From an uncultured Bacilli bacterium (lineage in GTDB: Bacteria > Bacillota_I > Bacilli_A > RF39 > UBA660), in NCBI GenBank assembly GCA_947623685.1, contig CANQHF010000001.1:19619-83618 (forward strand): 64,000 nt of DNA, read 5' to 3'. A program made the position numbers and the translations under genes. The notes beneath the pieces are model-generated. The model saw only the letters and a list, made by a program, of their open reading frames with translations. It did not search any database and was not told where the DNA came from. Positions 6,209 through 44,744 of the stretch are shown in pieces (the stretch's first letter is position 1; each line of letters begins with the position of its first letter).

Positions 6209-6718
6209 TTAAGCCGCCGTACTTGTAATATCAAACTCATGATTGTTATAATGACCATTACTTAATACTTTTGAATTACCTATACCAGAGCCACTTTCAA
6301 TATTCTTTTTCATCTCTTCTAACGATAATATTTTATTATCTATTTCTGATTGGGCATTTGATAATAAAACCGTATCATCTTCATTTGATTTAGTATTAAC
6401 TTTCTCATTTATATTTAAATATTCATCAAAGACTTTATCAATTTCTTTTGATACTAAATCATCTACCCTTTGTTTAGCAGCATTAACTATTTTATTAAGT
6501 TCGCTTCTTTTAATAGTAGGAGATATAATTTTTTTAACATTTAAACTCAGCTTTATATCAAAAAGAGTATCTATCGTGCTTTTGATTACATTTATTCTTT
6601 CCTGATGAGAATTAACGCCATCTTTAGCACTAGGCCATTTTTCAAGTTTTACTGAATCCATAGACATAAAACATCCCCTTTCTATTATTTCATTTTTAGC
6701 ATAACATAATATTAACAT
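6209..6718 (-). CDS. hypothetical protein
   Basis: 169-aa ORF, hydrophilic and coiled-coil-like, no recognisable family; the true start may be the internal MSMDSVK. Confidence 0.35.
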   Translation of the reverse strand: MLILCYAKNEIIERGCFMSMDSVKLEKWPSAKDGVNSHQERINVIKSTIDTLFDIKLSLNVKKIISPTIKRSELNKIVNAAKQRVDDLVSKEIDKVFDEYLNINEKVNTKSNEDDTVLLSNAQSEIDNKILSLEEMKKNIESGSGIGNSKVLSNGHYNNHEFDITSTAA

Positions 6719-6759
6719 AAAAGAAAAGGATAAAATGTCTAATTTTATCCTTGTTTACA

Positions 6760-9690: not shown

Positions 9691-9698
9691 ACTAACAC

Positions 9699-10880: not shown

Positions 10881-10926
10881 CGATAAACCTCCATATAATA
10901 ATTTATAATTAAAAGGAAATGGTATT

Positions 10927-12201
10927 TTATTTTACCGTTACACTTACTTTTGCACTTACGCCATCAGAAGCTGTTGCACTTATCGTTGCAACCCCAGGTT
11001 TAAGTGCTTTTACAACCCCATTTGAAACGCTAGCAACCGATGGATTAGAACTTTTCCAAGAAATATTTTTATTAGTTGCGTTAGTAGGAGAATAACTAAC
11101 TATTAATTTTTTTGATTCACCCTTTTTCAAAGCAAACGAATTAGGGGTTAATGTTATACTTACTAATTTAATATAATTAGATTTTACTACTACCGTTCTT
11201 GTTTTATAATTACTATTGCCGTATGAATCAGTAACAGAATAAGTTATTCGGTAAGTTCCAGCAACTTTGTTATTAACGCTTCCACTTCGGTTAACTAAAG
11301 CCGTTATATCCATTCCTTTGGCATCAAATGCTGAATATCCAGGATCAACCCAGGTTTGCCCTACGTTTATCGTTACGTAAGATTCTCCTTTTAAAATTAT
11401 GTTAGGAGGATCTGATACCTTTTTAGAAGTCGTTTTTTTCTTTGTTACGCTTTGTTTTGCAGTTGTCTGTTTAGCTTTAGTCGTTATTTCAACTTCTTTT
11501 TGAGTAGTCTTTTTAATAACCGTTACCACTCTTTTTTCTTGAGCTTTATTTCCTTTTTTATCACTAACCGTATAATAAATTGTATAAACACCTGCTTTAG
11601 ACACATCAACACTTCCAGTTATTTTTATACTTGAAGTTATATCCCCATCGATATTATCATGGGCTTTAGCGCCTTGTTCATCATATTTTTCGTTCACGTT
11701 AATTGTAATTTGCTTATCACCAATAATGGTTATCACTGGTTTTTCATCATCTTTTTCAGTCTTTTTTTTAGTGGTTACATCACTTATGTATCCCTTTGTT
11801 TCATAGCCATCACACGAAATATATGCATCATAAGTTTCAACTTGCACTTTAGATGCTAAAACGTATCCCTTACATATTTTTACAACCTTAAGTTTACTAG
11901 AATCTATCGCTCCGCCATTTTCCACCAATAATTCTTTTAAATCTATTTTAATTGGTTGATTAGTAAGTTCTATTTCTTTTTGAGATAAATAAGTAGGTGC
12001 TTCTTCTACCATACGAGATTCCAATCTTAAAAAATCTTGGGTAGTAAATTTTTCTTTTTGGTTTTTTGTTTTATTAAGTATAATGATAATTACAACTATT
12101 AAAATAATTAATCCTAACGCTAATAAAATAACCATACCTCTAGTTATTTGAAACTTTGGTTTTACTTCTTCGGTATTATAATCGTCCAATCGTATCACCA
12201 C
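10927..12201 (-). CDS. membrane-anchored surface protein with Ig-like (DUF5011/Big_2) domains
   Basis: N-terminal TM anchor, Lys/Thr-rich linker, and a C-terminal Big_2-like domain (ITLTPNSFALKKGESKKL...ATISATASDG). Confidence 0.55.
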   Translation of the reverse strand: MVIRLDDYNTEEVKPKFQITRGMVILLALGLIILIVVIIIILNKTKNQKEKFTTQDFLRLESRMVEEAPTYLSQKEIELTNQPIKIDLKELLVENGGAIDSSKLKVVKICKGYVLASKVQVETYDAYISCDGYETKGYISDVTTKKKTEKDDEKPVITIIGDKQITINVNEKYDEQGAKAHDNIDGDITSSIKITGSVDVSKAGVYTIYYTVSDKKGNKAQEKRVVTVIKKTTQKEVEITTKAKQTTAKQSVTKKKTTSKKVSDPPNIILKGESYVTINVGQTWVDPGYSAFDAKGMDITALVNRSGSVNNKVAGTYRITYSVTDSYGNSNYKTRTVVVKSNYIKLVSITLTPNSFALKKGESKKLIVSYSPTNATNKNISWKSSNPSVASVSNGVVKALKPGVATISATASDGVSAKVSVTVK

Positions 12202-12351
12202 TTTCTATCTTACTTAAACATTATAACACGTATAACACCATTTAGTAAATGAAAGAAATTTACATACTTTAAAACTTTTAATATTTATTTAATTTCTAAA
12301 TAAAAAAATTTAACAAACAAGAAGTTTATTAAATTTTTTTCTCTACTTATT

Positions 12352-13359
12352 TTATTTACTTGCAAAATACTTAGCACATCTTACCATTTGAGAAGAATAA
12401 CCCATTTCGTTATCATACCAAGCAACAACCTTAACTAACTGCTTACCATCAACTTCAACAATGTTAGTTAATAAGCCATCTACTAATGCTCCACATTCCA
12501 TACCAATTATATCACTTGATACGATTGGATCTTCCGTATATTTAATGGTTTCACTTTGATTTTGTCTAAATAATTCATTTATTTCATCTTTAGTAACGTT
12601 TTTCTTTAACTCAAGTGTTAAATCAATAACCGAGCCAGTCGTAACCGGAACTCTCATCGCCGTTCCGTCTAATTTTCCTACGAGTTCTGGAATTACAAGC
12701 CCAATTGCGCTTGCTGCTCCAGTTGACGAAGGAACGATGTTTGCTGCTGCCGCTCTACCACGTCTTTTCATATGACCTTTTTTATGAGCAACATCAAGGG
12801 TTGCTTGATCATTAGTATAAGCGTGCACGGTGGTCATAAATCCTTTTTCAACACCATAATTATCACATAAAAGTTTCATAACTGGTGCAAGACAATTAGT
12901 CGTACAACTTGCCGCACTAATTACTTTTTCATCACCAACTAAACTATTTTGATTAACGTTATAAACAATTGTTTTTAAATCCCCCGTAGCTGGAGCGGAA
13001 ATAATTACTTTTTTAGCACCAGCTTCTATATGAGCCCAAGCTTTTTGCTTGCTAGTAAAAAAACCAGTACACTCAAAAACAACGTCTATTTGTAAATTAC
13101 CCCAAGGCAAGGTGCTTGGATCCTGCTCGCTATAAATTCTTATTTTCTTACCATTTATTATTATGTTTTCATCATCATTTGTTATCTCATCCGTTTTATA
13201 CCTTCTATGAGACGTATCATATTTAAGCAAATAAGCTAATTGGGCAGAATCCGTTAAATCATTTATTGCAACAACATCAAACGATGGATCTTCTTGCATT
13301 ATCCTAAAAACTAGCCTACCAATTCTACCAAAACCATTAATTGCAACTCTAATTGCCAT
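12352..13359 (-). CDS. gap: glyceraldehyde-3-phosphate dehydrogenase
   Basis: 335 aa with NGFGRIGR Rossmann motif and [10 protein letters not shown] catalytic motif. Confidence 0.9.
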
Positions 13360-15851: not shown

Positions 15852-16514
15852 CTATGAATCAGTTGTACTATACGTCAATGTTATATCTCCAAATGATACG
15901 TCGAAGTCGCCGTCTGCAAGTGGAGGATTATCAAGGTGACGTGCATAAGCCGTCCATACATAAATTTTTTCTGATGCTCCTTTTGCTAATGGATGATTAG
16001 TTACAGTTTTCGTGCTTCCTACACTATATAAAGGATTATTACTTGTTACATCATCACCTAAACTTATGGTTAATGCTATCTTTTTACAAACTTCATCTAC
16101 TAAAGTTTGTGATGTGCCTTGTTTTGCAGTACATGTTTTTTTACCAAACTCAATTTTCTTTAAATATGCTACGTAACTTCCTTCATTTCTTACGTAAAAT
16201 GTATATGAAGCAGAAGAATCTGGCTTTTTAAACGTTACTTTTATTCCAGTTATTTGTGGATGTAATGGATCAGTATTATTTATCGTTGCGGGTGTTGCAG
16301 TAGCATTAAGACTTCCTGGCGTAATAGTATTAGTTTGAAGGCTATCTTTTGAACTTGAAAACAAAACTTTAAAGTTTGATGGATCTGGGGTTACCGTTGC
16401 TCCTTGTTTTATTATTAGGTTATTAGAAAATACTGAAAATCCTATTGATAAGCTTACTACCACTGCAAGTAAACATAGTATTATTATAACTTTGTTATTA
16501 TTTCTCTTGTGCAT
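15852..16514 (-). CDS. Secreted protein, phase-variable paralog family (dispersed copy)
   Basis: 220 aa. N-terminus K-rich + hydrophobic + SIGFSVFSNNL...TVTPDPSNFKVLFSSS, and C-terminus DGDFDVSFGDITLTYSTTDS, both shared with 40722-43079. Preceded by the poly-G promoter module. Confidence 0.75.
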   Translation of the reverse strand: MHKRNNNKVIIILCLLAVVVSLSIGFSVFSNNLIIKQGATVTPDPSNFKVLFSSSKDSLQTNTITPGSLNATATPATINNTDPLHPQITGIKVTFKKPDSSASYTFYVRNEGSYVAYLKKIEFGKKTCTAKQGTSQTLVDEVCKKIALTISLGDDVTSNNPLYSVGSTKTVTNHPLAKGASEKIYVWTAYARHLDNPPLADGDFDVSFGDITLTYSTTDS

Positions 16515-16539: not shown

Positions 16540-16596
16540 TGTTTATAATATCATATACCCCCCCCCGGTCAAGTTTTTGAAACAATTGTGGAAAAC
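16540..16596 (-). promoter_or_regulatory. Family promoter module with G9 tract in the -35/-10 spacer
   Basis: Minus strand reads GTTTTCCACAATTGTTTCAAAAAC-TTGACC-G9-TATATGA-TATTATAAAC; C tract at 16558-16566. Confidence 0.6.
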
Positions 16597-21033: not shown

Positions 21034-22683
21034 TTAATCTATTTTATAAGGATTATTAATAGATCCATCTCCATATGTATAAGTTACATCATTTTTTAAT
21101 GATACACTTGGGTTAACACTAGCAGTTTCTTTTAGACGTTTAGAGTCAAATTTACCATTATTAATAACATATCTATAGAACTCATTATTGATATTTTCTT
21201 CAGCAAGTTTCATAGTAAATAACCACATTGGATTACCAGACGTATAAGGTAAATACGATGATGTTGGAGACAAATTAGCACTTATTCCTGCAAGCATCGC
21301 CTCATCTGATGTTAATAATGCTACCGGGTAAGTAATTTTTAGTGTTACTAAATCTGAATTCCACTCGCCGGCAAGACTATACATGGTAATAGGAGCAGTG
21401 CCATATCCTAAATATGGTTTACCATTACTAATCCTAGTATCAGCAGATTGTGAATCAGGATCATAAATAAATTCATTCCATATGGTATCTTCTAATTTAA
21501 GAGTGTATTTTGTCATATTTTGTGAATACCAATTATCTATATAGTTATGTATATCCAAAAAAGGTGTGGAAAAACCATTAAGCATTTCACCACCATAAAA
21601 ATTAGCATCCTCATCTTTATCATATTCAGTATTTCCAATACTTGATATGGCCGAGCATACTCCATTTACTGGTTTCCCACTATAAACTATTTTTATTCCG
21701 CCAGTATCAGTTGTTCTTACTATCTTCCAGCAAAAGTTTGCAAATAATACATTATTATTTAACGTGTTATCTCCCCTATAATAATATATTGGATATTTAT
21801 CACTACTTGTTGATGAAAATTTGTACTTTCCTTGTCCATTAGTACTAGATGATGGTTTTGTAAAATCTATTTTACTATCAGATGTTGCACCATCTTTTAT
21901 GGTAGCATAAAGACTTTTAGGTTTTAATCCCTCAATTACCAAATCACCAGTTACATTTTGGATGGTAAATTGACCATTTTGATATGTATATTGACTACTT
22001 GTTAATGCTTTACCACCTTGCGTTATATTAAATACCGTATAACCAGTACCTATATCTATATTTAATGTATCTTCATCTAATATCTCTGTTGGTAAATTTG
22101 TGAAGGATGCTGATGTTATATTTTTATAAGTTATCTTATGATATGTTCTAAAATCAAATCCTAGATTAAAAGTATAATCTTTTGTCGCTGTAGCAGCATT
22201 ATATTTACCATCTTTATATTTTATTACTATGTCAATTGTTCTTTTAGCGCCCATAGTACATTTTATAGTGCTTAAATTATCACATATTTTAGATTTTTCT
22301 GGAAAAATTGTTGCATATGTTAAATCAGCTGGTAAGACTTCTGCTATATATTTAAAAATGCCAACTTCTACATTTCCTATATTAGTTATTTCTACCTTAT
22401 ATGTTACGGTTGAGTTTGCATTTGGAAGTCTTACGCTTCCGCTTATGTTAGATACGTTATAATCTTCCCAGTTTGATATACCACCATTATTACCTTGTGC
22501 AGTAACATTTGTTACCCTAACATCTTTTTCTACTCTTACTACCGCTTTAATATCTTTCACGTTTAGTTTAGTATTAAATGCTGAATAACCCACGGATATT
22601 AGTAAAGTCATTATTACCATTACGCTTGCTATTATACTTGGCACTTGCAATCTTTTTTGTTTTTTCAACAGAATCATCTCCAC
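21034..22683 (-). CDS. Large secreted protein sharing the family signal peptide and promoter module
   Basis: 549 aa with N-terminus ...LLISVGYSAFNTKLNVK (TasA/SipW-cognate-like) and a Thr/Asn/Gly-rich beta-type ectodomain. The ORF track starts at GTG 22683; in-frame ATG 22677 or TTG 22668 may be the real start. Poly-G promoter module upstream. Confidence 0.7.
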   Translation of the reverse strand: MEMILLKKQKRLQVPSIIASVMVIMTLLISVGYSAFNTKLNVKDIKAVVRVEKDVRVTNVTAQGNNGGISNWEDYNVSNISGSVRLPNANSTVTYKVEITNIGNVEVGIFKYIAEVLPADLTYATIFPEKSKICDNLSTIKCTMGAKRTIDIVIKYKDGKYNAATATKDYTFNLGFDFRTYHKITYKNITSASFTNLPTEILDEDTLNIDIGTGYTVFNITQGGKALTSSQYTYQNGQFTIQNVTGDLVIEGLKPKSLYATIKDGATSDSKIDFTKPSSSTNGQGKYKFSSTSSDKYPIYYYRGDNTLNNNVLFANFCWKIVRTTDTGGIKIVYSGKPVNGVCSAISSIGNTEYDKDEDANFYGGEMLNGFSTPFLDIHNYIDNWYSQNMTKYTLKLEDTIWNEFIYDPDSQSADTRISNGKPYLGYGTAPITMYSLAGEWNSDLVTLKITYPVALLTSDEAMLAGISANLSPTSSYLPYTSGNPMWLFTMKLAEENINNEFYRYVINNGKFDSKRLKETASVNPSVSLKNDVTYTYGDGSINNPYKID

Positions 22684-22699
22684 AATTTTTCAATTTCCT

Positions 22700-22760
22700 A
22701 TGTTAATAATATCACTAACCCCCCCCCGGTCAAGTTTTTTAAAAAATTGTGGAAAACAAA
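22700..22760 (-). promoter_or_regulatory. Family promoter module with G9 tract (C tract 22719-22727)
   Basis: Minus strand reads ...TTGACC-G9-TTAGTGA-TATTATTAAC; the upstream block is slightly diverged (TTTTTTAAAAAA). Confidence 0.55.
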
Positions 22761-23080: not shown

Positions 23081-23260
23081 AAAAAAATTAAAAAAATATG
23101 CTTTTTTTCTCATTGTTTTAATTTATTATTTATGAATCAGTTGTACTATACGTTAAAGTTATATCGCCAAACATAACATCATCTTTCTTTTATTTACTAT
23201 GTTTATAATATCCCCATACCGGTAGTTTTTTGAAAAATTGTAGAAAACAAAAAACCATAT
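23081..23260 (-). pseudogene. Deletion remnant of a family gene (3' end fused to 5' UTR + degenerate promoter module)
   Basis: 23131-23172 equals the last ~41 nt of the family ORF (..ITLTYSTTDS*), joined directly at a 7-nt microhomology (GATGTTA) to family 5'UTR sequence. The promoter module is degenerate (CCCCATACC; GGTAG for GGTCAAG). The family 3' flank is conserved at 23081-23130. Confidence 0.6.
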
Positions 23261-27597: not shown

Positions 27598-28164
27598 TTA
27601 ATCAGTTATTATTTCTACTATACTGCCATTTTCAATTAAAAAAGCATTTGCATCATCAGTATCCAAATGAACTTCAGACACATAGTTATCTTTTATTCTT
27701 ACGTACACATCATTTAGTATTCCACTTTTTTTGCCTTTTACTAATACGGAAACAAACTTTTTGTCTTTAAGTCCTAATTCTAAAGCTTCTTTAGTTGATA
27801 CGTGTAAATGTCTTGCAGCAATAATTGCAGCGTTTTTAGTTATTTTTGATTTTGGCCCAATTATCGTTATTTTTGCAGCGCCAGTTAAATCTCCAGAACA
27901 TCTTACCGGGGGATTAATTCCTAATTTATAAGCATCCGTTTTTGAAATTTCAACTTGGGTTTTATCTCTTAAAGGCCCTACAATTCTTGCTTTTAGAGTT
28001 TCTTTATTTGGACCTTCTAAAACAACTAAAGAAGTAGATGCATACTCACCCTTTTGTGATAAATCATTTTTTTTAGTTAACTTATAATCATCTCCAAACA
28101 AAGTTTTTAAATCTTCATAATTAAGATGAACGTGTCTTGCACTAACACCAACTTTTACTTTCAT
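27598..28164 (-). CDS. pduL: Phosphate propanoyltransferase PduL-like
   Basis: 188 aa with duplicated GVSARHVHL... / ARHLHVS PduL repeats. Confidence 0.6.
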   Translation of the reverse strand: MKVKVGVSARHVHLNYEDLKTLFGDDYKLTKKNDLSQKGEYASTSLVVLEGPNKETLKARIVGPLRDKTQVEISKTDAYKLGINPPVRCSGDLTGAAKITIIGPKSKITKNAAIIAARHLHVSTKEALELGLKDKKFVSVLVKGKKSGILNDVYVRIKDNYVSEVHLDTDDANAFLIENGSIVEIITD

Positions 28165-28251
28165 AGCTTATCTCCTACTTTTAATTATAACATGTATAAA
28201 TATTTTTATTCAATCATATATTTAAATGAATTATAAAAAAGGAGATTATAT

Positions 28252-28668
28252 ATGAACACAAATTATTATTCAAATCCTACTTATCCAAACTTAAATACAA
28301 GTGGAATTCAAATGAGTGCAATGGGGGGTGTTGCATCAAGTCCTAGCCAGTCAACTAGTAACGCAAGTAATAATAACCTAGCCGTTATGCAGGCGACTAA
28401 TAATATGCTTGAAATAGAACAGTCATACATTGAAAACATATTAAGACTTAATAAGGGAAAACTAGCAACTTTTTATATGTCTTTTCCAGATTCAGTAGAT
28501 TGGAGAGATAAAACATTTACCGGAATAATAGAAGCAGCCGGAAGAGATCACATAATCATAAGTGATCCTAAAACCGGAAGATGGTACTTACTTCTTATGA
28601 TTTATTTAGACTACGTCGATTTTGATGAGAAGATAAATTATAGTCCAGAGTATTATCCAAATAACTAA
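28252..28668 (+). CDS. gerQ: Spore coat protein GerQ-like
   Basis: 138 aa with a Ser/Asn/Gln-rich N-terminus and a conserved C-terminal block EQSYIENILRLNKGK...TGIIEAAGRDHIIISD, resembling GerQ/YwdL. Confidence 0.45.
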   Translation: MNTNYYSNPTYPNLNTSGIQMSAMGGVASSPSQSTSNASNNNLAVMQATNNMLEIEQSYIENILRLNKGKLATFYMSFPDSVDWRDKTFTGIIEAAGRDHIIISDPKTGRWYLLLMIYLDYVDFDEKINYSPEYYPNN

Positions 28669-28729
28669 CTAAATCTTGTAAATATTATCTACTTTTGTTA
28701 TAATTTAAATTAGAATAGAGGTAGATAAA

Positions 28730-29263
28730 ATGATCATCATATTAATTATTTTAGTACTTGCCATAATATTATTTATTTATAGTATTTGCCATGATAAAAT
28801 TAGCTTTTTAACAATAAAATTATCTAACATAGAAGAAAAAATAAAAAGTACGTTAATTAAAAGAAAAGAATTAATTAAGGATTCTGAAAAAATAATAAAA
28901 GACATAGTAAAAACAGAAAAAGAAATATATAGTGGTTTATCTAATTTAAATGATGAAAAAATTAACATGATGGAATTAGATAGAAAACTATTAGTATATA
29001 TAAGTGAATTTCATCTTATAAAAGATAAATATCAAAAATTACAAAAAAACGAAGATTTTCAAAAGATTGCTTTTAATATTTTAGAAACAGAAGACTTACT
29101 TAATGCTTATAAAAATTATTATAATGATAACGCTCTTAAATATAATAAACTTATTAAAAAGTTTCCAATTATTATCGTCACTCTAATAAAAAGAAGAAAA
29201 GAAAAACTATTCTTTGATGAAAAAAATATAAATGATTTAGATTATAATGATTTTAAATATTAA
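28730..29263 (+). CDS. lemA: LemA family protein
   Basis: 177 aa with an N-terminal TM helix, then a LemA-like domain (NAYKNYYNDNALKYNKLIKKFPIIIVT). Confidence 0.6.
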   Translation: MIIILIILVLAIILFIYSICHDKISFLTIKLSNIEEKIKSTLIKRKELIKDSEKIIKDIVKTEKEIYSGLSNLNDEKINMMELDRKLLVYISEFHLIKDKYQKLQKNEDFQKIAFNILETEDLLNAYKNYYNDNALKYNKLIKKFPIIIVTLIKRRKEKLFFDEKNINDLDYNDFKY

Positions 29264-29269
29264 AGGAGA

Positions 29270-29929
29270 TTAAAAACTAATCTCCTTTTTATTATGTTCT
29301 TTTAAATATTTATTTGTTTTAGAAAATGGCTTACTTCCAAAGAAACCATTATAAGCTGATAAAGGTGAAGGATGTGCTGACTCTATTATGTAATGACTAG
29401 GATTAGTTATAATTCTTTTCTTATCTCTCGCTTGCCTTCCCCATAAAATAAAGACAACGTTATCTAATTTATCATTTATTTGTTTTATTACATAATCAGT
29501 AAATATTTCCCATCCAATATCCTTATGTGAATTAGCCTTATCTTTTTCTACGGTTAATACTGTGTTAAGTAAAAACACTCCTTGTTTAGCCCAGTCTGAT
29601 AAATCAGTATCAGTTCTTTTTATTTTTAAGTCATCATATAACTCTTTAAATATGTTATTTAAAGAAGGTGGTGTTCTAACTCCCCTTCTTACTGAAAACG
29701 AAAGCCCCATCGCTTCTTTTTCGCCATGATAAGGGTCTTGTCCTAAAATAACTACTTTAATATCATTAAAATCAGTTAATTTAAACGCATTAAATAAATC
29801 TTGAGCAGGTGGATATATTGTTTTGGAAAGTCTTTCTTCTTTAATAAAATCTTTAATATATTTAAAATAACTCTTTTGCATTTCATCTTGCAATATCAAA
29901 TCCCAATTATTATGAAACAAGGTTAGCAC
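29270..29929 (-). CDS. ung: uracil-DNA glycosylase
   Basis: 219 aa with the family-1 UDG motifs GQDPYHG and HPSPLSA. Confidence 0.9.
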   Translation of the reverse strand: MLTLFHNNWDLILQDEMQKSYFKYIKDFIKEERLSKTIYPPAQDLFNAFKLTDFNDIKVVILGQDPYHGEKEAMGLSFSVRRGVRTPPSLNNIFKELYDDLKIKRTDTDLSDWAKQGVFLLNTVLTVEKDKANSHKDIGWEIFTDYVIKQINDKLDNVVFILWGRQARDKKRIITNPSHYIIESAHPSPLSAYNGFFGSKPFSKTNKYLKEHNKKEISF

Positions 29930-30157
29930 CTCCTAATAAGTTAATTCTAACTTCCTTTGGTTTTATTATAGCAAATGTATTAAAAATAATAAACAAAAAA
30001 GCTATTTAAAGCTAAACTCCTTGAAATAGTGCAATATCGCTTTCTTTTTTGTAAAACCCCTATTATTTTATATAGCATTTAGATTTTTCTAAAATAAAAG
30101 ATTGATTTGACAAAATATAATCTATAGATATAATAATGCAAAAAGGAGTTTAAAACT

Positions 30158-30898
30158 ATGGATACTATAAATCAAAAAGAAATATTAGATAAAATAAAGC
30201 AGGAAATATGTAGAATTCATCCTATCTTAAGTCCTAGAAAAAATGATGAAAGAAAAGAAATTTCTGTAATGGAAATATATTTTAATTTCGGAGCAACATA
30301 TGATAATACACCCTTTACTTTTATTGGTTTTTTAGATGGAGATGAACACCATAAAAGTACAACCTCCACTTATTATAAATTAGATGAATATATTAATTTA
30401 GAAATGGTTGATCAACTTATTTCTTATTTAATTAGCCAATACCCATATATAAGCGATTTTTCCATTTTTCCACAGTTTTTTTCTTTAAATTTTGCGTATC
30501 CTTGTGAAATGGAAAATCAAGAAGGAATCAGTTGTGATAAAATTATATTAAATTTTACTACACGTACTAAAGAATTTACACCAATATTAAATCAATATTT
30601 ATCAAATATTTTAGTACAATTTACAAATGAATTATCGCGAACTTCAACTTTTCAATATAAATATGCTGAATACTGTAATAATTTGCAAAGAAATATTTTA
30701 AATTCATTAAATGAAAAAGAAATAGAGCAAATGATTGAAATATTACCAATTGAAATGAAAAAAGAATTATTGCAAAAACTTCCAAGTCAATATTTTTTGC
30801 AATTTTATCAAGAACATTATAATAAGGAAGAAGAAGCACTATCAAAACAATTAATTAATAATAAGACACAGCCACCTTTTAAACTACCAAAATCTTAA
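30158..30898 (+). CDS. hypothetical protein
   Basis: 246-aa ORF with good RBS (AAAGGAG); no recognisable family. Confidence 0.4.
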   Translation: MDTINQKEILDKIKQEICRIHPILSPRKNDERKEISVMEIYFNFGATYDNTPFTFIGFLDGDEHHKSTTSTYYKLDEYINLEMVDQLISYLISQYPYISDFSIFPQFFSLNFAYPCEMENQEGISCDKIILNFTTRTKEFTPILNQYLSNILVQFTNELSRTSTFQYKYAEYCNNLQRNILNSLNEKEIEQMIEILPIEMKKELLQKLPSQYFLQFYQEHYNKEEEALSKQLINNKTQPPFKLPKS

Positions 30899-30967
30899 AA
30901 GATATAAAACAAAGTAAAAAATACTTAAATAAAACTAGAAGCAAGTAAAATAATAACAGCTTTTTAA

Positions 30968-30998
30968 GGAACGCAAATAGCGTTTCTTTTTTCTTTGT
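30968..30998 (+). terminator. Candidate rho-independent terminator
   Basis: GGAACGCaaatAGCGTTTC hairpin followed by TTTTTTCTTT. Confidence 0.4.
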
Positions 30999-31171
30999 TA
31001 ATAAATAATTATAAAAGTTATTCACCTAAAAACAAGCACCATAATTATAAAAATTATAGGTGTGTAATTTTTCATAATAAATATTATTTAGAGTTTTACT
31101 TTACTTACATTTTTTTATTAGCTATAAATAATAAAATGAATAATGCTCAAAATATACCATATTATAATAAT

Positions 31172-31224
31172 ATACCGATGACGGTATAAAATATATTGAC
31201 AGATACTACCGATGTCGGTATAAT
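31172..31224 (+). promoter_or_regulatory. fic promoter with two palindromic operator-like sites
   Basis: -35 TTGACA (31196-31201), 17-nt spacer, -10 TATAAT (31219-31224). Palindromes ATACCGATGACGGTAT (31172-31187) and TACCGATGTCGGTA (31207-31220) lie upstream of and inside the spacer. Confidence 0.5.
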
Positions 31225-31242
31225 GTAAATAGAGGTGTAATT

Positions 31243-32169
31243 ATGGAATTTATGACTACAAAAGAAGCTGTAAAAAAATGGAATATTAGTGAAAGAAGAA
31301 TAAGACAATTATTACAAGACGGAAGAATTGATGGTGCAATTAAAGTAGATAATAATTGGAATATTCCTATTAATGCTAATAAACCTGCCGATAAAAGAAG
31401 TATTAAATTTGATAATACTAAATTTAAATTTGAATTACCTGATAATTATTTTGATGAAGTCGATAAATTAAATAAGAAATTAAGTTCTAAAAGACCTATA
31501 CCAAAAGAAACACTAAAATCTTTAAAAGAATCTATTAATTTAGAATGGACTTATAATAGCAATGGCATAGAAGGAAATACGTTAACTTTAAGAGAAACAC
31601 AAGTTGTTTTAGAAGGTATTACAGTTGGTGGTAAATCTTTAAAAGAACATTTAGAAGCTATTAATCATGAACAAGCAATATTATTTTTGGATGATCTTAT
31701 TAAAGATAAAAAGCCAATTACTGAATCCAATATTAAAAATATTCATCAATTAGTATTAAAAGAAATTGATGATAAGAATGCTGGTAAATATAGAGATGAG
31801 AATGTAAAAATAAAAGGTGCCACACATATTCCACCAGATTATTTAATTGTTCCAGAATTAATGAAAAAATTAATTATTAACTATGATGATTGGAAAAAAT
31901 ACCATCCAATAATAAGAGCTTCCTTATTACACGGAGAATTAGTTAAAATTCATCCATTTGTTGATGGTAACGGAAGAACTTCAAGATTAGTTATGAATCT
32001 ATCTTTAATGAATAGTGGATATCTTCCAGTAATCATAAAAAAAGAAAAAAGATTAGAATACTATAATGCATTAGATAAGGCACATACTACTGGAGATTAT
32101 ACTGATTTTGTCAAATTAGTTAATGAATTAGAAATTGAAATGTTAAATAAATATTTAGAATTATTATAA
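31243..32169 (+). CDS. fic: Fic family protein with N-terminal HTH
   Basis: Fic motif HPFVDGNGRTSR; N-terminal excisionase/MerR-like HTH (TTKEAVKKWNISERRIRQLLQDGRI). Confidence 0.8.
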   Translation: MEFMTTKEAVKKWNISERRIRQLLQDGRIDGAIKVDNNWNIPINANKPADKRSIKFDNTKFKFELPDNYFDEVDKLNKKLSSKRPIPKETLKSLKESINLEWTYNSNGIEGNTLTLRETQVVLEGITVGGKSLKEHLEAINHEQAILFLDDLIKDKKPITESNIKNIHQLVLKEIDDKNAGKYRDENVKIKGATHIPPDYLIVPELMKKLIINYDDWKKYHPIIRASLLHGELVKIHPFVDGNGRTSRLVMNLSLMNSGYLPVIIKKEKRLEYYNALDKAHTTGDYTDFVKLVNELEIEMLNKYLELL

Positions 32170-32190
32170 AAAAATAACAAACAAAAAGAG

Positions 32191-32637
32191 CTATTTATGA
32201 TAGCTTTCATTATTTATTATTTTAAATGAACGATATATTTGTTCTAATAAAATTATCCTAAACAATTGATGTGGAAAAGTTAAATCAGAAAATGATATAG
32301 AGCAATTTGCTCTTTTTATAACTTCTTCTGATAATCCGTATGAACCACCTATTACGAAAGTAATATTATTAGAAATATTATGGTTAATAAAACTTGATAA
32401 CTCTCTTGAATCTAGCTTTTTACCATTTATTTGTAAAGCAACAACATAATCTTTATCTAAAATTTTAGAAAGAATATTTTTACCTTCTTCGTTAATTGTC
32501 TTTACTAAATCATAATTATAATCTGGTAGTTCTATTATTTCTAATTTAGTGTACTTGGATATTCTTTTTTCATATTCTTTTATTGCTTCCATAAAGTACT
32601 TTTCTTTAACTTTTCCAACACATATTATTTTTATCAT
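32191..32637 (-). CDS. rlmH: 23S rRNA (pseudouridine1915-N3)-methyltransferase RlmH
   Basis: SPOUT fold; MIKIICVGKVKEKY... matches RlmH, with the start placed at that Met rather than the upstream ORF-track start. Confidence 0.8.
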   Translation of the reverse strand: MIKIICVGKVKEKYFMEAIKEYEKRISKYTKLEIIELPDYNYDLVKTINEEGKNILSKILDKDYVVALQINGKKLDSRELSSFINHNISNNITFVIGGSYGLSEEVIKRANCSISFSDLTFPHQLFRIILLEQIYRSFKIINNESYHK

Positions 32638-39241: not shown

Positions 39242-39631
39242 TTATTTCATTGTTTTTTTATTATCATTTAAATCAATTTGGTTTAAAATTTCAATATTAT
39301 AATTTAATCCGCGTTTTTCTTCGCCACTAACATATACCGCATCAAGCTCTTCTAAACTAAAACTTTTTTGTCTATCTTCCTTTTGTGTGTTTATATTTTT
39401 AAATAACTTACCAAGTGGTACGTCTATTTTTGAATTATTTTTTTCATCTTTAAAAATAAGTCTTGAGTCATTAAATATATAATTACTTTTTCCTATTTGC
39501 TTTCGTGATATAATTTGATAATAATCAAATATGCCAACAAGCATGTCAAAATCACTTGCACCACCATAAAACAAAAGTAATTTTATATTATTATTTGTAA
39601 ATAAATCTTCTATTTGCCTAGTTGTTATCAT
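39242..39631 (-). CDS. hypothetical protein
   Basis: 129-aa ORF, no family recognised. Confidence 0.35.
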   Translation of the reverse strand: MITTRQIEDLFTNNNIKLLLFYGGASDFDMLVGIFDYYQIISRKQIGKSNYIFNDSRLIFKDEKNNSKIDVPLGKLFKNINTQKEDRQKSFSLEELDAVYVSGEEKRGLNYNIEILNQIDLNDNKKTMK

Positions 39632-39684
39632 TTCACCACATCCGAAATATATATTATATCAAATGATAAAAACAATCAAGAAAA

Positions 39685-40587
39685 TTAAGATGCTTTTTTC
39701 TTTTCCCAAGGAGCTTTTTTTCTTAATTGTGATCCATTATAACCTATTTCATCTTCTTGTTTATTAGAACTTATACCATCGTAATTTATAACATCTTCAT
39801 TTATTTTTAAGTTTCTTAGTTGATATTCTTGATCTTGGTTTTTTACTACCGCACTTATTTCATCTTTTGTTGGATCATTTGGCACGCATAGAATAACTAT
39901 ATTCTCATCTGGTGCAACAAAAACGTTTTTAGATAACCTTAATATTACTTGATCAACCGGTGTTTGCATTAATCTTTTTTTATCTTCTTCACTTTTTGCA
40001 AGCATATTTATAATTGATGATATAAGACCATAAACGCATTGTTTTTCTTTGTAAGAAAGTTTTGAAAATTCACCTCTTTTTGCTAAATCAGTAACGTTTT
40101 TAACCTTTATTTCAATTCTTTGTTTTTCGATTGAATTTTCATATACATCAACTGAATTTACGAATCCATTAACACTAACTAACCCATTTTCATCCTTTGC
40201 GGCTTCAAATAATTCTTTAGCTGTTTTACCAGAATGATTTTCAACTATTTTAATCTCATCGGTTGGATATGGATAATGTATTTTAATATATCTTTTAGTT
40301 TTTGACTCATTTTCAAATTCATCAACGTTATCTAAAGTTATTTTATTTTCTTGTGGTAATTTTTCATTATTTAAATTCAATTTATTTTCAATTTCTTCTT
40401 TAGTAAGCCTTTTAATTTCTTCAAAAATTTCTTTAACGTTTCTTTTATCATTTAAATATATATCACATAATTTTTGTTTATCAACATCAGAAACATTTTT
40501 ATTAAGGCAAACTTCATCTACAGCTAAAGCAATTGACTTTTTCTTAAATTCATTAGTATCATTTGTAACATTTATATTATTTTCCAT
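39685..40587 (-). CDS. hypothetical acidic protein
   Basis: 300 aa, hydrophilic, no signal peptide, no family recognised; immediately downstream (in transcription direction) of the tandem family array. Confidence 0.4.
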   Translation of the reverse strand: MENNINVTNDTNEFKKKSIALAVDEVCLNKNVSDVDKQKLCDIYLNDKRNVKEIFEEIKRLTKEEIENKLNLNNEKLPQENKITLDNVDEFENESKTKRYIKIHYPYPTDEIKIVENHSGKTAKELFEAAKDENGLVSVNGFVNSVDVYENSIEKQRIEIKVKNVTDLAKRGEFSKLSYKEKQCVYGLISSIINMLAKSEEDKKRLMQTPVDQVILRLSKNVFVAPDENIVILCVPNDPTKDEISAVVKNQDQEYQLRNLKINEDVINYDGISSNKQEDEIGYNGSQLRKKAPWEKKKAS

Positions 40588-40669
40588 TTATAACCACCTT
40601 CTATTATAATTATATATATTTACCATTTCTATTCAATTTTTATATACTATATATGTAAATTAAAAAGTA

Positions 40670-40705
40670 AAAAAAGATTAACATTTAAATTTTGTTAATC
40701 TTTTA
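40670..40705 (-). terminator. Rho-independent terminator ending the tandem family array
   Basis: Perfect 11-bp inverted repeat AAAGATTAACA...TGTTAATCTTT followed by TTTTTTT on the minus strand. Confidence 0.55.
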
Positions 40706-40721
40706 TCTTATATCTATATTA

Positions 40722-41417
40722 TTATGAATCAGTTGTACTATACGTTAATGTTATATCGCCAAACGTAACATCAAAGTCTCCGTCAGCGAATACATTATTA
40801 TTATTATTTTTATAAAAAATAGAAATAATAATATATTTAAAAGTTTCTTTTTCTAAAGGATGTTCTGTTATATTATCTCGTGTAGTTTTTAAACCTTCTA
40901 TATTCCACGCACTAAGGGAAACGTCATTACCATCATAATGTATTTCAATTATTATACCTTCACAGACTTTATCTACTAAATCTTGTGATGTACCTTCTTT
41001 GGCAATACATTTTTTATCTCCAAATTCTATTTTCTTTAAATATGCTGTATACTTTCCTTGGTTTGTAACATAAAACCCCCAATTAACAAGATCATCTGGA
41101 TTTGTAAGCGTTGCTTTTAATCCAGTTATTTTTGGATGCAATGAATCACTATTATCTATTGTTGCAGGAAATCCCAATGCAGTACCTTTAATAACACGAT
41201 AATTAAGATCTCCAGCTACCACACTATCTTTTGAACTTGAAAACAAAATCTTAAAGTCTGATGGATCTGGTGTTACTGTTGCAGTTGAATTAATATCTAG
41301 ATTTTTAGAAAATGCTGAAAATCCTATTGATAAGCCTATTACTCCAATCATAAGTACCATGATTATTATTATTTTAGAGTTTTTATTATATCTTTTTCTT
41401 GTTCTTTTACTATTCAT
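40722..41417 (-). CDS. Secreted protein, phase-variable paralog family (array member 3)
   Basis: 231 aa with N-terminus MNSKRTRKRYNKNSKIIIIMVLMIGVIGLSIGFSAFSKNLDINSTATVTPDPSDFKILFSSS, conserved central KYTAYLKKIEFGDKKCIAKEGTSQDLVDKVCEGI, and C-terminus DGDFDVTFGDITLTYSTTDS. Confidence 0.8.
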   Translation of the reverse strand: MNSKRTRKRYNKNSKIIIIMVLMIGVIGLSIGFSAFSKNLDINSTATVTPDPSDFKILFSSSKDSVVAGDLNYRVIKGTALGFPATIDNSDSLHPKITGLKATLTNPDDLVNWGFYVTNQGKYTAYLKKIEFGDKKCIAKEGTSQDLVDKVCEGIIIEIHYDGNDVSLSAWNIEGLKTTRDNITEHPLEKETFKYIIISIFYKNNNNNVFADGDFDVTFGDITLTYSTTDS

Positions 41418-41439
41418 TTTTTCCCACCTTGTTTCAATT

Positions 41440-41500
41440 TACTATGTTTATAATATCACTTACCCCCCCCCGGTCAAGTTTTTGAAACAATTGTGGAAAA
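41440..41500 (-). promoter_or_regulatory. Family promoter module with G9 tract (C tract 41463-41471)
   Basis: Minus strand reads GTTTTCCACAATTGTTTCAAAAAC-TTGACC-G9-TAAGTGA-TATTATAAAC...AAGGTGGGAAAAAATG. Confidence 0.6.
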
Positions 41501-41600
41501 CAAATTATAGATTTGTAAAATAATTTAACTTAGTAATTGCAAAATAAATTATTCAAAAAATATGCTTTCTTTTGCATATTCCATTGTTTTAATTTATTAT

Positions 41601-42269
41601 TTACGAATCAGTTGTACTATATGTCAAAGTCAAATCACCAAACTCTACATCAAAGTCGCCGTCTGCAAGTGTCGCTTTAGAAGAGTAGTCAATCTGAATA
41701 GCAACATGTTTAAAAGTCCCTTTTTCTAAAGGATGATCTGTTATATTATCTTTTGTAGTAGTTAAACCAAGTATATTCCAACTACCAGCGTCATCATCAT
41801 AATATATTCGAAGTTCTATACCTTCACAAGCTTTATTAACTAGGTCTTGTGATGTTCCGTCTTTTGCAGTACATTTTTTCTCTCCAAACTCTATTTTCTT
41901 TAAATATGCTGTGTATTTCCCTTGGTTTGTAACATAAAACCACCATTCAGCAGCTTTACCTGAACCAGTAAACGTTGCTTTTAAATTACTAATAGTCGGG
42001 TGTGCCGGATCACTATTATTTATTGTTGCAGCTGTTCCTTGCACATATAATGGGTTAATAGGATTAGTTTCAACTGTCGTGTTTGAACTTGAAAATAATA
42101 CCTTAAAGTCTGATGGATCTGGTGTTACTGTTGCAGTTGAATTAATATCTAGATTTTTAGAAAATGCTGCAAAACCAATTGATAAGCCTATTACTCCAAT
42201 AGTAAGTACAATGATTATTATTATTTTAGAGTTTTTATTATATCTTTTTCTTGTTCTTTTACTATTCAT
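41601..42269 (-). CDS. Secreted protein, phase-variable paralog family (array member 2)
   Basis: 222 aa with the same N-terminal 60 aa and C-terminal DGDFDVEFGDLTLTYSTTDS; the central region is divergent. Confidence 0.8.
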   Translation of the reverse strand: MNSKRTRKRYNKNSKIIIIIVLTIGVIGLSIGFAAFSKNLDINSTATVTPDPSDFKVLFSSSNTTVETNPINPLYVQGTAATINNSDPAHPTISNLKATFTGSGKAAEWWFYVTNQGKYTAYLKKIEFGEKKCTAKDGTSQDLVNKACEGIELRIYYDDDAGSWNILGLTTTKDNITDHPLEKGTFKHVAIQIDYSSKATLADGDFDVEFGDLTLTYSTTDS

Positions 42270-42284
42270 TTTTCCACCTTGTTT

Positions 42285-42350
42285 TAATTCCTATGTTTAT
42301 AATATCACTAACCCCCCCGGTCAAGTTTTTTCAAAAATGGGTGGAAAACA
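42285..42350 (-). promoter_or_regulatory. Family promoter module with G7 tract (C tract 42312-42318) and diverged upstream block
   Basis: Minus strand reads ...CACCCATTTTTGAAAAAAC-TTGACC-G7-TTAGTGA-TATTATAAAC. Spacer is 2 nt shorter than in the other copies. Confidence 0.6.
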
Positions 42351-42401
42351 AATTGAAAAAAATATGTTTTTTTTGTATGTTTTATTACTTTAATTTATTA
42401 T

Positions 42402-43079
42402 TTACGAATCAGTTGTACTATACGTTAAGGTTATATCTCCAAACTCTACATCAAAGTCTCCATCTGTAACAGGAGCATTAGCATTATAAATACCAATAGC
42501 AATCCGTTTAAAAGTGCCTTTTTCTAAAGGATGATTTGTTATATTTTCTTTTGTAGTAGTTAAATTAGGTATATCCCAACTACCAGTGCTACGATCATAA
42601 TATATTTGAAGGTTCATATATTCACAAGCTTTATCAACTAAAGCTTGTGATGTTCCTTCTTTGGCAATGCATTTTTTAGTTCCAAAATCTATTTTCTTTA
42701 AATATGCTGTATATTTTCCTTGATTGGTTACAAAAAATTCCCATTCAACCATTTGGTTTGATTTAGTAAACGTTGCCTTTATGCCTGTTATTTTTGGATG
42801 CAATGGATCTTTATTATCTATTGTTGCAGTAGTTCCTGTCGCATTAGCACTTTTAAGACTAACACCAATAGGATTAGTTGCAACAGTTGTTTCTGAACTT
42901 GAAAACAAAATTTTAAAGTCTGATGGATCTGGTGTTACTGTTGCAGTAGAATTAATATCTAAATTTTTAGAAAATGCTGAAAATCCTATTGATAATCCTA
43001 TTACTCCAAATGTAAGTACCATGATTATTATTATTTTAGTGTTTTTATTATATCTTTTTCTTGTTCTTTTACTGTTCAT
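42402..43079 (-). CDS. Secreted protein, phase-variable paralog family (array member 1)
   Basis: 225 aa with the same N-terminal signal region and C-terminus DGDFDVEFGDITLTYSTTDS. Confidence 0.8.
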   Translation of the reverse strand: MNSKRTRKRYNKNTKIIIIMVLTFGVIGLSIGFSAFSKNLDINSTATVTPDPSDFKILFSSSETTVATNPIGVSLKSANATGTTATIDNKDPLHPKITGIKATFTKSNQMVEWEFFVTNQGKYTAYLKKIDFGTKKCIAKEGTSQALVDKACEYMNLQIYYDRSTGSWDIPNLTTTKENITNHPLEKGTFKRIAIGIYNANAPVTDGDFDVEFGDITLTYSTTDS

Positions 43080-43104
43080 TTTTTTCCACCTTGTTTTAAT
43101 TTCC

Positions 43105-43170
43105 TATGTTTATAATATCACTAACCCCCCCCCGGTCAAGTTTTTGAAACAATTGTGGAAAACAAATTAA
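43105..43170 (-). promoter_or_regulatory. Family promoter module with G9 tract (C tract 43125-43133)
   Basis: Minus strand reads GTTTTCCACAATTGTTTCAAAAAC-TTGACC-G9-TTAGTGA-TATTATAAAC. Confidence 0.6.
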
Positions 43171-43202
43171 AAAGATTAACGTTTTAATTTTACGTTAACC
43201 TT

Positions 43203-44744
43203 TTATATTGTAGGATAAATTCCCGGGCCAATAGGAAGTCCTATTATGTACCAACATATTATCATAAGAAGCCAAATGAAAGTTATTCCTATAAAATATG
43301 GGAAAATTAATTTATAACAACGTCTAATGCTAAAGTCATTTTTATTTTTAGTAAATACTTCAATAAATCCAATAAAAATAACAAAGTAAGAGAATAGCGG
43401 GGTTATAACATTTGTTATTGAATCTCCAGCTCTAAATACTAATTGAGCAAATTCAGGAGATATATTAGCTTGCATAACTACTGGCATTATATTAGGTGCC
43501 ATAATTGCCCATTTAGCAATTGAACCAGGAAGTAATATGTTACATATCATTGAAAATAAGAAAATTATTAATATCAATGGAATAAATGAAAATTTAGATG
43601 CAGAAATAAAATTTGATAATATTCCAGTTATTACAACTCCGATGTTAGTTTGAGTAACATATGCATTAAGTTGAGCTGCAAAAAAGATTAATACAAAGAT
43701 ACCGCCTAAACTTTTTAAGTAATCGGTTGAAAAATTAACCATATCTCTAATCTTTTTTATCGTTCCTGTTACAACACCAAACACAAATGCTTGTAATGCT
43801 AAAACAAATGATAAAATACCAACCATATTAGTCATTAGAAGTGAATCAGAAGAAAATAACATCTTTGAGTATTCATCTTGTGATTTATCTAATAATAATC
43901 CTAAAAAACCATTACCATTCGCTGGAATAAGCATTAATATAATTGGAATTAAGCAAATGATGGTGGTTATTAAAGCTGCTATTAAACCTTTCTTTTCTTT
44001 TGCTTCTTCAACAACGAATTCTTCTTCATCTTCTAATTGATTTCTACCTAGTTTTCTTACAACTATCTTTTCAGTTATCAAAGTGCATATTGCTGCGATT
44101 AATACCGCTGCAATTATTATAAATATTAAGTTACTAGATTGGGATACTAAATAATCAGAATCTAGCAATTTAGCACTTGCTTCTGTGTAGCTAGTTAAAT
44201 TATAATCAAGTGATGTTATGAATAAACCTGCTCCGTGTCCTGCTGCCGTCGAAGCAAAACCTAATGCAAGGCCACCAAGTGGGTTACGATTCATAGCCAT
44301 GAATAAAACCGCTCCTATTGGTAGTAATAAAACGTATCCAACATTACTATCTAAACTTGCGATTATACATACTATGGAATAAAGAAATACTAAAATAAAT
44401 TTAGGTATTTTTTTATTTAGTTTTCCACATAAAGTTTTTAAATATCCTGATTTTAAAGCTATACCAAATGATATCGCTGCAATTAAAAGTGATGCAAATG
44501 GTACGAACTCTATCAAATTATTATACGCTGAAGTAATTATGAATTTAATTCCATCCAAACTTAGAAGTGAATTTACCGCAACGGTACTTGATTCAACTTC
44601 CCCAGCAATGGTTGTTAATTTATCATAAGTTGCTTGTAAATTTAAAGCATTTGCTATACCACTTATTACAATTACTAGCAACAACATATAGATAAAAAAC
44701 ATTACTGGATGAGATGATTTTTTAAATTTTTTTGGATTAATCAT
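43203..44744 (-). CDS. AbgT-family transporter (putative p-aminobenzoyl-glutamate transporter)
   Basis: 513 aa polytopic membrane protein; size and hairpin-loop-like Gly-rich segments are consistent with AbgT/MtrF. Confidence 0.5.
   Translation of the reverse strand: MINPKKFKKSSHPVMFFIYMLLLVIVISGIANALNLQATYDKLTTIAGEVESSTVAVNSLLSLDGIKFIITSAYNNLIEFVPFASLLIAAISFGIALKSGYLKTLCGKLNKKIPKFILVFLYSIVCIIASLDSNVGYVLLLPIGAVLFMAMNRNPLGGLALGFASTAAGHGAGLFITSLDYNLTSYTEASAKLLDSDYLVSQSSNLIFIIIAAVLIAAICTLITEKIVVRKLGRNQLEDEEEFVVEEAKEKKGLIAALITTIICLIPIILMLIPANGNGFLGLLLDKSQDEYSKMLFSSDSLLMTNMVGILSFVLALQAFVFGVVTGTIKKIRDMVNFSTDYLKSLGGIFVLIFFAAQLNAYVTQTNIGVVITGILSNFISASKFSFIPLILIIFLFSMICNILLPGSIAKWAIMAPNIMPVVMQANISPEFAQLVFRAGDSITNVITPLFSYFVIFIGFIEVFTKNKNDFSIRRCYKLIFPYFIGITFIWLLMIICWYIIGLPIGPGIYPTI

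Follow-up and report, generated by a model that had tools for sequence, protein, structure and literature searches.

Introduction

To our knowledge, nearly all known cases of phase variation driven by repeats come from pathogens in culture, such as Neisseria, Haemophilus, Campylobacter, Treponema, and Mycoplasma. The present analysis concerns a 64-kb stretch of DNA from an uncultured Bacilli bacterium (contig CANQHF010000001.1, positions 19,619 to 83,618; hereafter the window), in which genes of a family of predicted exported proteins carry a run of G residues within their putative promoters. Among the closest described systems are the poly-C of opc and the poly-G of porA in Neisseria meningitidis; for porA, a tract between the −35 and −10 boxes is outlined in PMC7864442 as controlling transcription, with 17 nt as the optimal spacing. 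The tp0126 promoter of Treponema pallidum likewise has a poly-G tract between the −35 and −10 boxes and is most active at 17 nt (PMC7864442). Poly-G promoters also occur in T. pallidum ahead of paralogous putative surface proteins (tprE/G/J, tprF/I, and tprL), and the tprL tract ranges from 7 to 11 G within strains, with the vast majority at 9 (PMC7864442). In Mycoplasma hyorhinis, each vlp gene has a poly-A run in its promoter, and in M. mycoides the Vmm promoter has a TA repeat in its spacer (PMC10502178, citing Citti and Wise 1995 and Persson 2002). The modal tract length in Campylobacter jejuni is nine; G8 tracts mostly gain and G11 tracts mostly lose residues, a pattern attributed to mutation and not to selection (PMC3401435).

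As in porA, the tract described here lies between the −35 and −10 boxes of a gene for an exported or surface protein, and its length sets the spacing of the boxes. The mechanism that we propose is therefore already known; what is new is the lineage and the protein family that carry it.

Results

A pure G run fills part of the spacer in five promoters of the window

Coordinates refer to the + strand of the window, and the promoters and family genes are read on the minus strand. Five C runs were found on the + strand, at 16558-16566 (9 nt), 22719-22727 (9 nt), 41463-41471 (9 nt), 42312-42318 (7 nt), and 43125-43133 (9 nt), all at the positions and lengths reported in a preliminary description of this DNA. 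These are the sole G/C runs of at least 7 nt within the window, the next-longest being 6 nt. Overlapping G/C 7-mers numbered 13 against 0.91 expected by shuffling, and none of 100 shuffles reached 13. Because the five tracts share a common ancestry, they do not represent five independent chance events. The promoter modules that contain them are as follows.

43112-43163, minus strand: promoter module of tandem copy 1, spacer 16 nt; upstream box GTTTTCCAC 43155-43163, −35 box TTGACC 43134-43139, G9 43125-43133, TG 43119-43120, −10 box TATTAT 43112-43117.
42299-42349, minus strand: promoter module of tandem copy 2, spacer 14 nt; upstream box 42341-42349, −35 box 42319-42324, G7 42312-42318, −10 box 42299-42304.
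41450-41501, minus strand: promoter module of tandem copy 3, spacer 16 nt; upstream box 41493-41501, −35 box 41472-41477, G9 41463-41471, −10 box 41450-41455.
22706-22757, minus strand: promoter module of the gene for a 549-aa protein, spacer 16 nt; −35 box 22728-22733, G9 22719-22727, −10 box 22706-22711.
16545-16596, minus strand: promoter module of a dispersed paralogue, spacer 16 nt; −35 box 16567-16572, G9 16558-16566, −10 box 16545-16550.

Read on the minus strand, all five tracts stood in the arrangement TTGACC-Gn-(TTAGTGA / TAAGTGA / TATATGA)-TATTAT-(A/T)AACATAG. The tract lies immediately 3' of the −35 box TTGACC and 7 nt upstream of the −10 box TATTAT (5/5), and the −10 box is TG-extended, with a TG two bases ahead of TATTAT. 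A homopolymer was thus found between the predicted −35 and −10 boxes in all five window promoters. Since the spacer measures 16 nt with G9 and 14 nt with G7, tract length sets spacer length, as the preliminary description had proposed. That description had also singled out the middle tandem copy (41601-42269) as differing from its neighbours, and its tract is indeed G7, against G9 on both sides.

A consensus scan of 40400-43400 called both G9 promoters, those of copies 1 and 3, each with 10 of 12 matches and with the TG present. The G7 promoter was missed, because its 14-nt spacer lies beyond the 16-18 nt range of the scan. A role of the tract as a terminator or hairpin was also considered and rejected, as no complementary C run lies close by. 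Rfam likewise matched no RNA family at any position of the window.

Relatives support the placement of the −35 and −10 boxes

Loci of the close clade were gathered via exact-protein look-ups. A DNA scan of metagenomes, with the G residues left out of the pattern (GTTTTCCAC-N8-16-AAACTTGAC), added a second lineage (ERZ1026856; L065 and L087). This pattern is loose and gives chance matches, and among the matches listed only L065 and L087 were relevant. Viral contigs contained no match to AAACTTGACCGGGGGGG.

Paralogues in which the tract is missing or interrupted kept both boxes at a spacing of exactly 17 nt in four of four cases (L004, L179, L180_7425, and L180_9082). The promoter reads TTGACC-GGATTGTGGGTTAATGA-TATTAT in L004, TTGACC-CGGGGGTAGGTATATGA-TATTAT in L179, and TTGACC-TAAAATTATGTAGGTGA-TAT(C/T)AT in the two genes within the L180 array. 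Distant homologues carry TTGAAA-N16/17-TGnTATCAT at the same distance to the ribosome-binding site and start codon. Together, the tract-less paralogues and distant homologues support the assignment of the putative −35 and −10 boxes around the tract, and they agree with the near-consensus boxes between which the preliminary description had placed it. An alternative −10 box, TATAAA (spacer 19 nt), was rejected, as the tract-less paralogues put TATTAT exactly 17 nt from TTGACC. The same paralogues narrow the earlier statement that every family promoter contains the tract, which holds within the window, whereas elsewhere some paralogues are tract-less or interrupted.

From these comparisons, the predicted working spacer range of the promoter family is 16-17 nt. 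G9 (16 nt) and G10 (17 nt) would fall inside this range, and G8 (15 nt) and G7 (14 nt) outside it. Furthermore, the interrupted, or "locked", variants all retain 10 nt at the position of the tract, giving a 17-nt spacer, and this spacing fits 17 nt as the putative optimum.

The pure G9 run is retained across lineages and broken at dead genes

Every G/C run of at least 7 nt in the 181.5 kb of clade loci (28 of 28) lay directly 3' of the −35 box of such a promoter, and runs of exactly 6 nt numbered three only. The 28 tracts, some of which are redundant among the assemblies, comprised 24 G9, two G8, one G7, and one G10. Among 22 distinct tract-bearing promoters, a single substitution was found within the G residues (G8A in L065), and the three bases 3' of the tract were about 50% conserved. 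A/T runs of 9 nt or more were absent from the 15-kb stretches that were compared; the longest homopolymer in this genome of 28% G+C (72% A+T) is the promoter G run. The spacer was 16 nt in most promoters, 15 nt in L005, and 17 nt in L087_3182 and in five promoters of L180 in which an additional C precedes the tract (C+G9).

In the second lineage (L065 10848-11657; L087 2325-3947), the same cassette was present with tracts of G8A, G9, and G9. It stands there ahead of proteins of 233-248 aa that belong to a different family and share with the window family a 22-residue N-terminal motif only (GYALFSQNLTINGTA). The conserved unit seems to be the promoter together with the export/anchor signal.

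Two decayed tracts were identified, and both lie on deletion pseudogenes, one in the window and one in L186. In the window, the decayed tract belongs to a sixth promoter copy (CCGGTATGGGG; module ACTACCGGTATGGGGATATTAT), itself decayed, which sits on what a deletion has left of a family gene.

23130-23248, minus strand: decayed promoter and family-gene remnant (M-FGDITLTYSTTDS*), with the start codon fused to the last 13 codons.

A pure G9 has been retained across lineages and lost from dead genes, which speaks for selection on the run itself. Both remnants (window 23130-23248; L186 4660-4855) consist of the start codon fused to the final 13-25 codons, and their promoters contain a broken G run, GGTAT(T)GGGG.

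In L180, positions 6001-12651 contain an array of family genes, at least nine of them in tandem, adjoining gyrB/gyrA and a mazEF pair. The promoters of this array are mixed, being of the G9 (16 nt), C+G9 (17 nt), and tract-less (17 nt) types, and one gene has no promoter of its own. Several contigs start or end inside the repeated promoter and 5' module (the starts of L003, L182, and L056 and the end of L002). Since contigs break within these modules, the loci are systematically fragmented in short-read assemblies, in which the copy number of the family is probably underestimated.

Tract length differs by one G between near-identical assemblies

The tract at 16558-66 was G9 in the window and in L184 and G10 in L185. 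Over 14.8 kb compared at 99.91% identity, only two indels were present, one at this tract and one at an AAT repeat near 16503, and none of the 36 A/T runs of at least 7 nt was altered in length. At the P0024 locus, where a single family gene lies between abgT and ychF in a related metagenome-assembled genome (MAG), the tract was G8 in L183 but G9 in L181 and L182, with no other indel in 883-1035 nt. A one-G difference was thus found at two of six comparable loci in assemblies at least 99.8% identical, all of them consensus contigs at 5-8x coverage; these differences are suggestive, but not proof, of tract-length variation between strains.

L001 and L002 showed tracts of 9/7/9 as in the window. 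They are 99.87% identical to it, and every difference lies within the 5' ends of copies 1 and 2. As they represent the same strain as the window, they were rejected as independent evidence of tract stability.

Nearly all differences between the window and L001, L002, L184, and L185 are concentrated at family genes, either in their promoters or at their 5' ends. Patches at 43074-43085, 42170-42210, 22740-22744, and 16461-16464 match another paralogue; at the start of copy 1, for example, A7 is changed to A5 together with a C to T change. Such patches suggest either that paralogues have undergone gene conversion or that the assemblies are chimeric at the repeats. The AAT repeat mentioned above, at 16495-16503, is a codon repeat encoding an asparagine run near the start of the 15852-16514 gene, and it reads NNN or NNNN depending on the assembly.

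The promoters precede a rare multi-copy family of predicted exported proteins

The genes downstream of the five promoters, and the terminator-like hairpins of the tandem copies, are as follows.

42402-43079, minus strand: family gene copy 1 (225 aa), predicted N-terminal membrane helix followed by a beta-sandwich.
41601-42269, minus strand: family gene copy 2 (222 aa), an intact open reading frame (ORF) downstream of the G7 promoter.
40722-41417, minus strand: family gene copy 3 (231 aa).
15852-16514, minus strand: dispersed paralogue of the family (220 aa).
21034-22683, minus strand: 549-aa exported protein, with only the N-terminal anchor motif (SVGYSAFNTKLNV) in common with the family; its exact start is uncertain.
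41556-41582, minus strand: terminator-like hairpin with a U run after copy 2 (−10.4 kcal/mol, z −3.5).
40672-40704, minus strand: terminator-like hairpin with a U run after copy 3 (−9.9 kcal/mol, z −2.3).

All five tracts had been described as preceding family genes. This is the case for four of them, while the tract at 22719 precedes the 549-aa protein. In the four window paralogues (220-231 aa), the N-terminus is basic and is followed by a hydrophobic helix that ends in G-F-S/A-A/V-F-S. The middle varies but contains two conserved cysteines, and the C-terminus, ADGDFDVxFGDITLTYS, is conserved. An AlphaFold2 model of a family protein (predicted local distance difference test score, pLDDT, 83) placed a membrane helix at the N-terminus, followed by a beta-sandwich. 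The family is multi-copy, with a tandem triplet in the window and the longer array in L180, and the ends of its members are conserved and the middles variable. The genes controlled by these promoters are therefore predicted to be of the surface or host-interaction type, present as several paralogues both in tandem and dispersed, and their products would be exposed at the cell surface.

The family is rare, with 70 clusters among 5.8 billion protein clusters. It had no Pfam or NCBIfam match at E < 0.1 except weak unrelated ones, a profile search of PDB sequences found nothing, and Foldseek gave no significant match for the protein model in the PDB. TasA/camelysin (Peptidase_M73) and the archaeal donor-strand filament subunits were considered as candidates, and neither the family models nor the solved members matched in sequence.

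The ribosome-binding sequence AAGGTGG was found at three of the five genes, those of the tandem copies, with a gap of 4-6 nt to the ATG rather than the 7 nt given in the preliminary description; for the genes at 16514 and 22683, the ribosome-binding region is a different one. Downstream of copy 1, the terminator hairpin (42345-42401) is degenerate (CATAC…CATAT), and its folding energy of −2.8 kcal/mol was no better than that of shuffled sequences. Its counterpart in L056 is intact (CATAC…GTATG).

The hosts are uncultured gut bacteria, and the window organism has cell-wall genes

Relatives of the family came exclusively from MAGs of uncultured gut bacteria that carry the labels Bacilli, Tenericutes, Mollicutes, or Erysipelotrichaceae, with rabbit, Hadza, rumen, and chicken as sample sources. 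The NCBI taxonomy places Candidatus Faecisoma, one named host of the wider family, under Mycoplasmatota. The hosts are uncultured gut Bacilli/Mycoplasmatota-like bacteria. The window is chromosomal and encodes parA/parB, dnaB, uvrAB, a ClpC-like ATPase, tRNA synthetases, FemAB, and M23/LysM hydrolases. The cell-wall genes comprise FemAB, Mur ligases, and M23/LysM hydrolases, and the presence of FemAB and M23/LysM hydrolase genes leads us to regard the organism as walled.

When 39242-40587 of the window was compared with L181 4711-4885, the interval between abgT and ychF was seen to hold three family genes and two unannotated ORFs (300 aa and 129 aa) in the window, whereas in the related MAG it holds one family gene only. 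The locus therefore varies in copy number and content. Elsewhere in the mostly minus-strand window, a block of + strand genes at 28000-32200 has a lower G+C content (0.24-0.25) and a reversed skew, and it includes a Fic/DOC-domain protein (31243-32169). This block may be an inserted island.

An upstream box forms an inverted repeat with the start region of the gene

In four of the five window promoters, the box upstream of −35 (TTTGTTTTCCAC plus about 10 nt) and the ribosome-binding and start region of the same gene together form an inverted repeat. The arms are 11-19 nt long, 79-93% complementary, and 44-65 nt apart, and they bracket the whole G-tract promoter. The arm pairs are as follows.

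41419-41437 and 41482-41500: inverted-repeat arms around the copy 3 promoter.
22679-22693 and 22739-22753: inverted-repeat arms around the promoter of the 549-aa protein gene.
42270-42285 and 42333-42348: inverted-repeat arms around the copy 2 promoter.
43079-43089 and 43155-43165: inverted-repeat arms around the copy 1 promoter.

A repeat of this kind was also found in L057, L058, L186, and L065; it was absent from the 16572 promoter and from all tract-less promoters. Of the 21 promoters with a tract, 10 reached z −3 to −5 in the energy of the duplex between box and leader, and none of the four tract-less ones did so. In folds of a hypothetical read-through RNA, the box paired with the Shine-Dalgarno and start region in six of seven cases, with z −3.6 for copy 3 and z −4.2 for L065, where the 19-bp stem differs in sequence; the folds of copies 1 and 2 were not significant. 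An invertible promoter (inverton) was rejected as the explanation of the repeat, as the arms are only 44-65 nt apart and none of the tract-bearing promoters with a readable downstream flank was reversed.

Because the box lies upstream of the promoter, it would be present only in transcripts that read in from outside. The ribosome-binding site of such transcripts may be hidden, which would insulate each switch, a lead rather than a finding. The cassette with the shared N-terminal motif stands ahead of at least three unrelated protein bodies. A wider scheme of self-insulating combinatorial surface variation in gut commensals can be drawn from this, in which the cassette of box, −35, G9, and −10 is coupled to an N-terminal export/anchor motif, read-through transcripts fold back and stay untranslated, and each paralogue would be expressed solely from its own mutable promoter. 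We offer this scheme tentatively and consider it doubtful. Fold-back inhibition in IS10 is a possible parallel to the inverted repeat; there, as Davis, Simons and Kleckner reportedly found in 1985, transcripts from outside hide the ribosome-binding site, whereas those from the element's own promoter are translated. The case here differs from IS10 in being a resemblance in predicted folds only, significant in some promoters and absent from others.

Discussion

The anatomy of the promoters, the exclusive association of long G runs with them, the purity of the tract, and the one-G differences between near-identical strains were observed directly. The mechanism behind them is probably slipped-strand variation of promoter strength, of the type described for porA, tp0126, and vlp. 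Each family gene would be transcribed from its own housekeeping-sigma-type promoter, consisting of an A/T-rich upstream region with the GTTTTCCAC box, TTGACC, and a TG-extended TATTAT, with the pure G run occupying the 5' part of the spacer. Single G residues would be gained or lost via slipped-strand mispairing at replication and, with the run placed between the boxes, every such change would alter their spacing and relative rotation. Cells within one population would then differ in which paralogues they express, or at what level. The change in expression would be heritable, presumably reversible, and probably graded rather than all-or-none, because a TG-extended −10 box lessens the dependence on −35; such a box is able to drive transcription despite a poor −35. 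The rate of slippage, its reversibility, the effect on transcription, and the surface exposure of the proteins are what we infer on this basis.

Several observations weigh against this mechanism. Twenty-four of the 28 tracts are exactly G9 despite spacers that the flanks set at 15, 16, or 17 nt, and tract length is therefore not visibly tuned to spacing. Something other than spacing fixes the number at nine, and two causes fit, a mutational attractor or selection acting directly on G9 for a role in binding or structure. Just two allelic length differences were found, both from metagenome consensus sequences at about 5-8x, at which a one-base homopolymer miscall is possible, and the three assemblies with tracts of 9/7/9 are essentially one strain and not independent replicates. 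Given the TG-extended −10 box, G7 may not be an OFF state. Moreover, the terminator of copy 1 is degenerate, so that transcripts from the copy 1 promoter could read through into the G7 copy. The slipped-strand switch put forward in the preliminary description is thus backed by the anatomy, by the exported multi-copy family, and by two one-G differences, and weakened by a G9 that is not tuned to spacing. The independent ON/OFF control of each paralogue that it envisaged fares less well, as the TG-extended −10 box favours graded control and the degenerate copy 1 terminator leaves independence without assurance.

The constancy of G9 raises the alternative that the run is a fixed promoter element under purifying selection, either the site at which a dedicated regulator binds, in concert with the GTTTTCCAC box, or a stretch of rigid poly(dG)-poly(dC) that sets promoter geometry, and that the G7, G8, and G10 alleles are ordinary mutations or consensus errors. 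We consider this unlikely. The predominance of G9 (24 of 28) over spacers of 15-17 nt and in two lineages with different proteins speaks for it, as do the presence of the box in 21 of 22 tract promoters versus none of four tract-less ones and the stronger conservation of the whole ~95-nt module than of the coding sequence. However, paralogues with an A/T-rich or interrupted 17-nt spacer and no box look functional, and the tract is therefore not needed for promoter function. All length changes are of whole G residues at the tract, among very few indels between near-identical strains, and a modal G9 is also seen in tracts proven to be hypermutable (PMC3401435, PMC7864442). In addition, no candidate regulator gene was found adjoining the loci.

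Homogenization among paralogues suggests another explanation, that a cassette with a chance G run spread by duplication and was kept uniform by gene conversion, the run itself being functionless. The differences between the window and near-identical assemblies do cluster as paralogue-like patches in promoters and 5' ends, and the cassette is nearly identical among paralogues whose proteins are just 50-75% identical, but part of this patchwork may reflect chimeric assembly at repeats and not true conversion. Conversion within a genome cannot account for a pure G9 in a second lineage with different proteins. An unselected G9 should moreover decay in a genome of 28% G+C whose other homopolymers do not exceed 8-9 nt, and it did decay at the dead genes, which makes this explanation improbable.

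It is very improbable that two-colour Illumina poly-G or homopolymer miscalls produced the tracts, for although the contigs have 5-8x coverage, several break at the repeated promoter modules, and the length differences are of a single base, the tract is internal to contigs with unique flanks, occupies one fixed promoter position, and recurs in independent assemblies of different projects (ERZ27249xxx, ERZ1026856, and NCBI MAGs), and the 36 A/T runs of at least 7 nt in the same contigs are unchanged in length, so that such errors could at most account for the plus-or-minus-one calls and not for the tract itself.

If slipped-strand variation does operate at these promoters, a rarely sampled and uncultured gut lineage, walled and near the mycoplasmas, uses the device of those pathogens to control an entire family of exported proteins. 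This would provide a functional handle on an unannotated protein family and would mark these promoters as places in which real heterogeneity of the population is concealed by metagenome assembly. TTGACC, followed by at least 7 G residues and TGnTATTAT, can serve as a search signature in MAGs.

Compared with porA, a single gene of a Gram-negative pathogen, the tract here is carried by a paralogous family and by an unrelated exported protein; further differences are the TG extension of the −10 box and the host, an uncultured, Bacilli/Mycoplasmatota-like gut commensal, and the system is known from sequence alone. The tpr genes of T. pallidum are similar in that poly-G promoters serve a paralogous family, and the strong G9 mode found here matches that of tprL. 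The two differ in that most tpr tracts lie just upstream of the start site and not strictly within the spacer, and in that the variation and its effects on reporters were measured in that spirochaete of moderate G+C content, whereas here they are deduced. C. jejuni resembles the present case in its AT-rich genome, in which long G/C runs are confined to contingency genes, and in a mode of nine, but most of its tracts lie inside reading frames, where they cause frameshifts, while all those described here lie in promoter spacers. The vlp system differs in having poly-A instead of poly-G, and its products are lipoproteins, whereas the signal region here has no lipobox cysteine and the host is walled. 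In organization, vlp shows the same tandem paralogues, each transcribed as a separate unit and with its own promoter homopolymer, a highly conserved 5' block of promoter and signal region, and variable bodies, and its host is the nearest lineage among the systems compared, as the wider family described here has a host filed under Mycoplasmatota.

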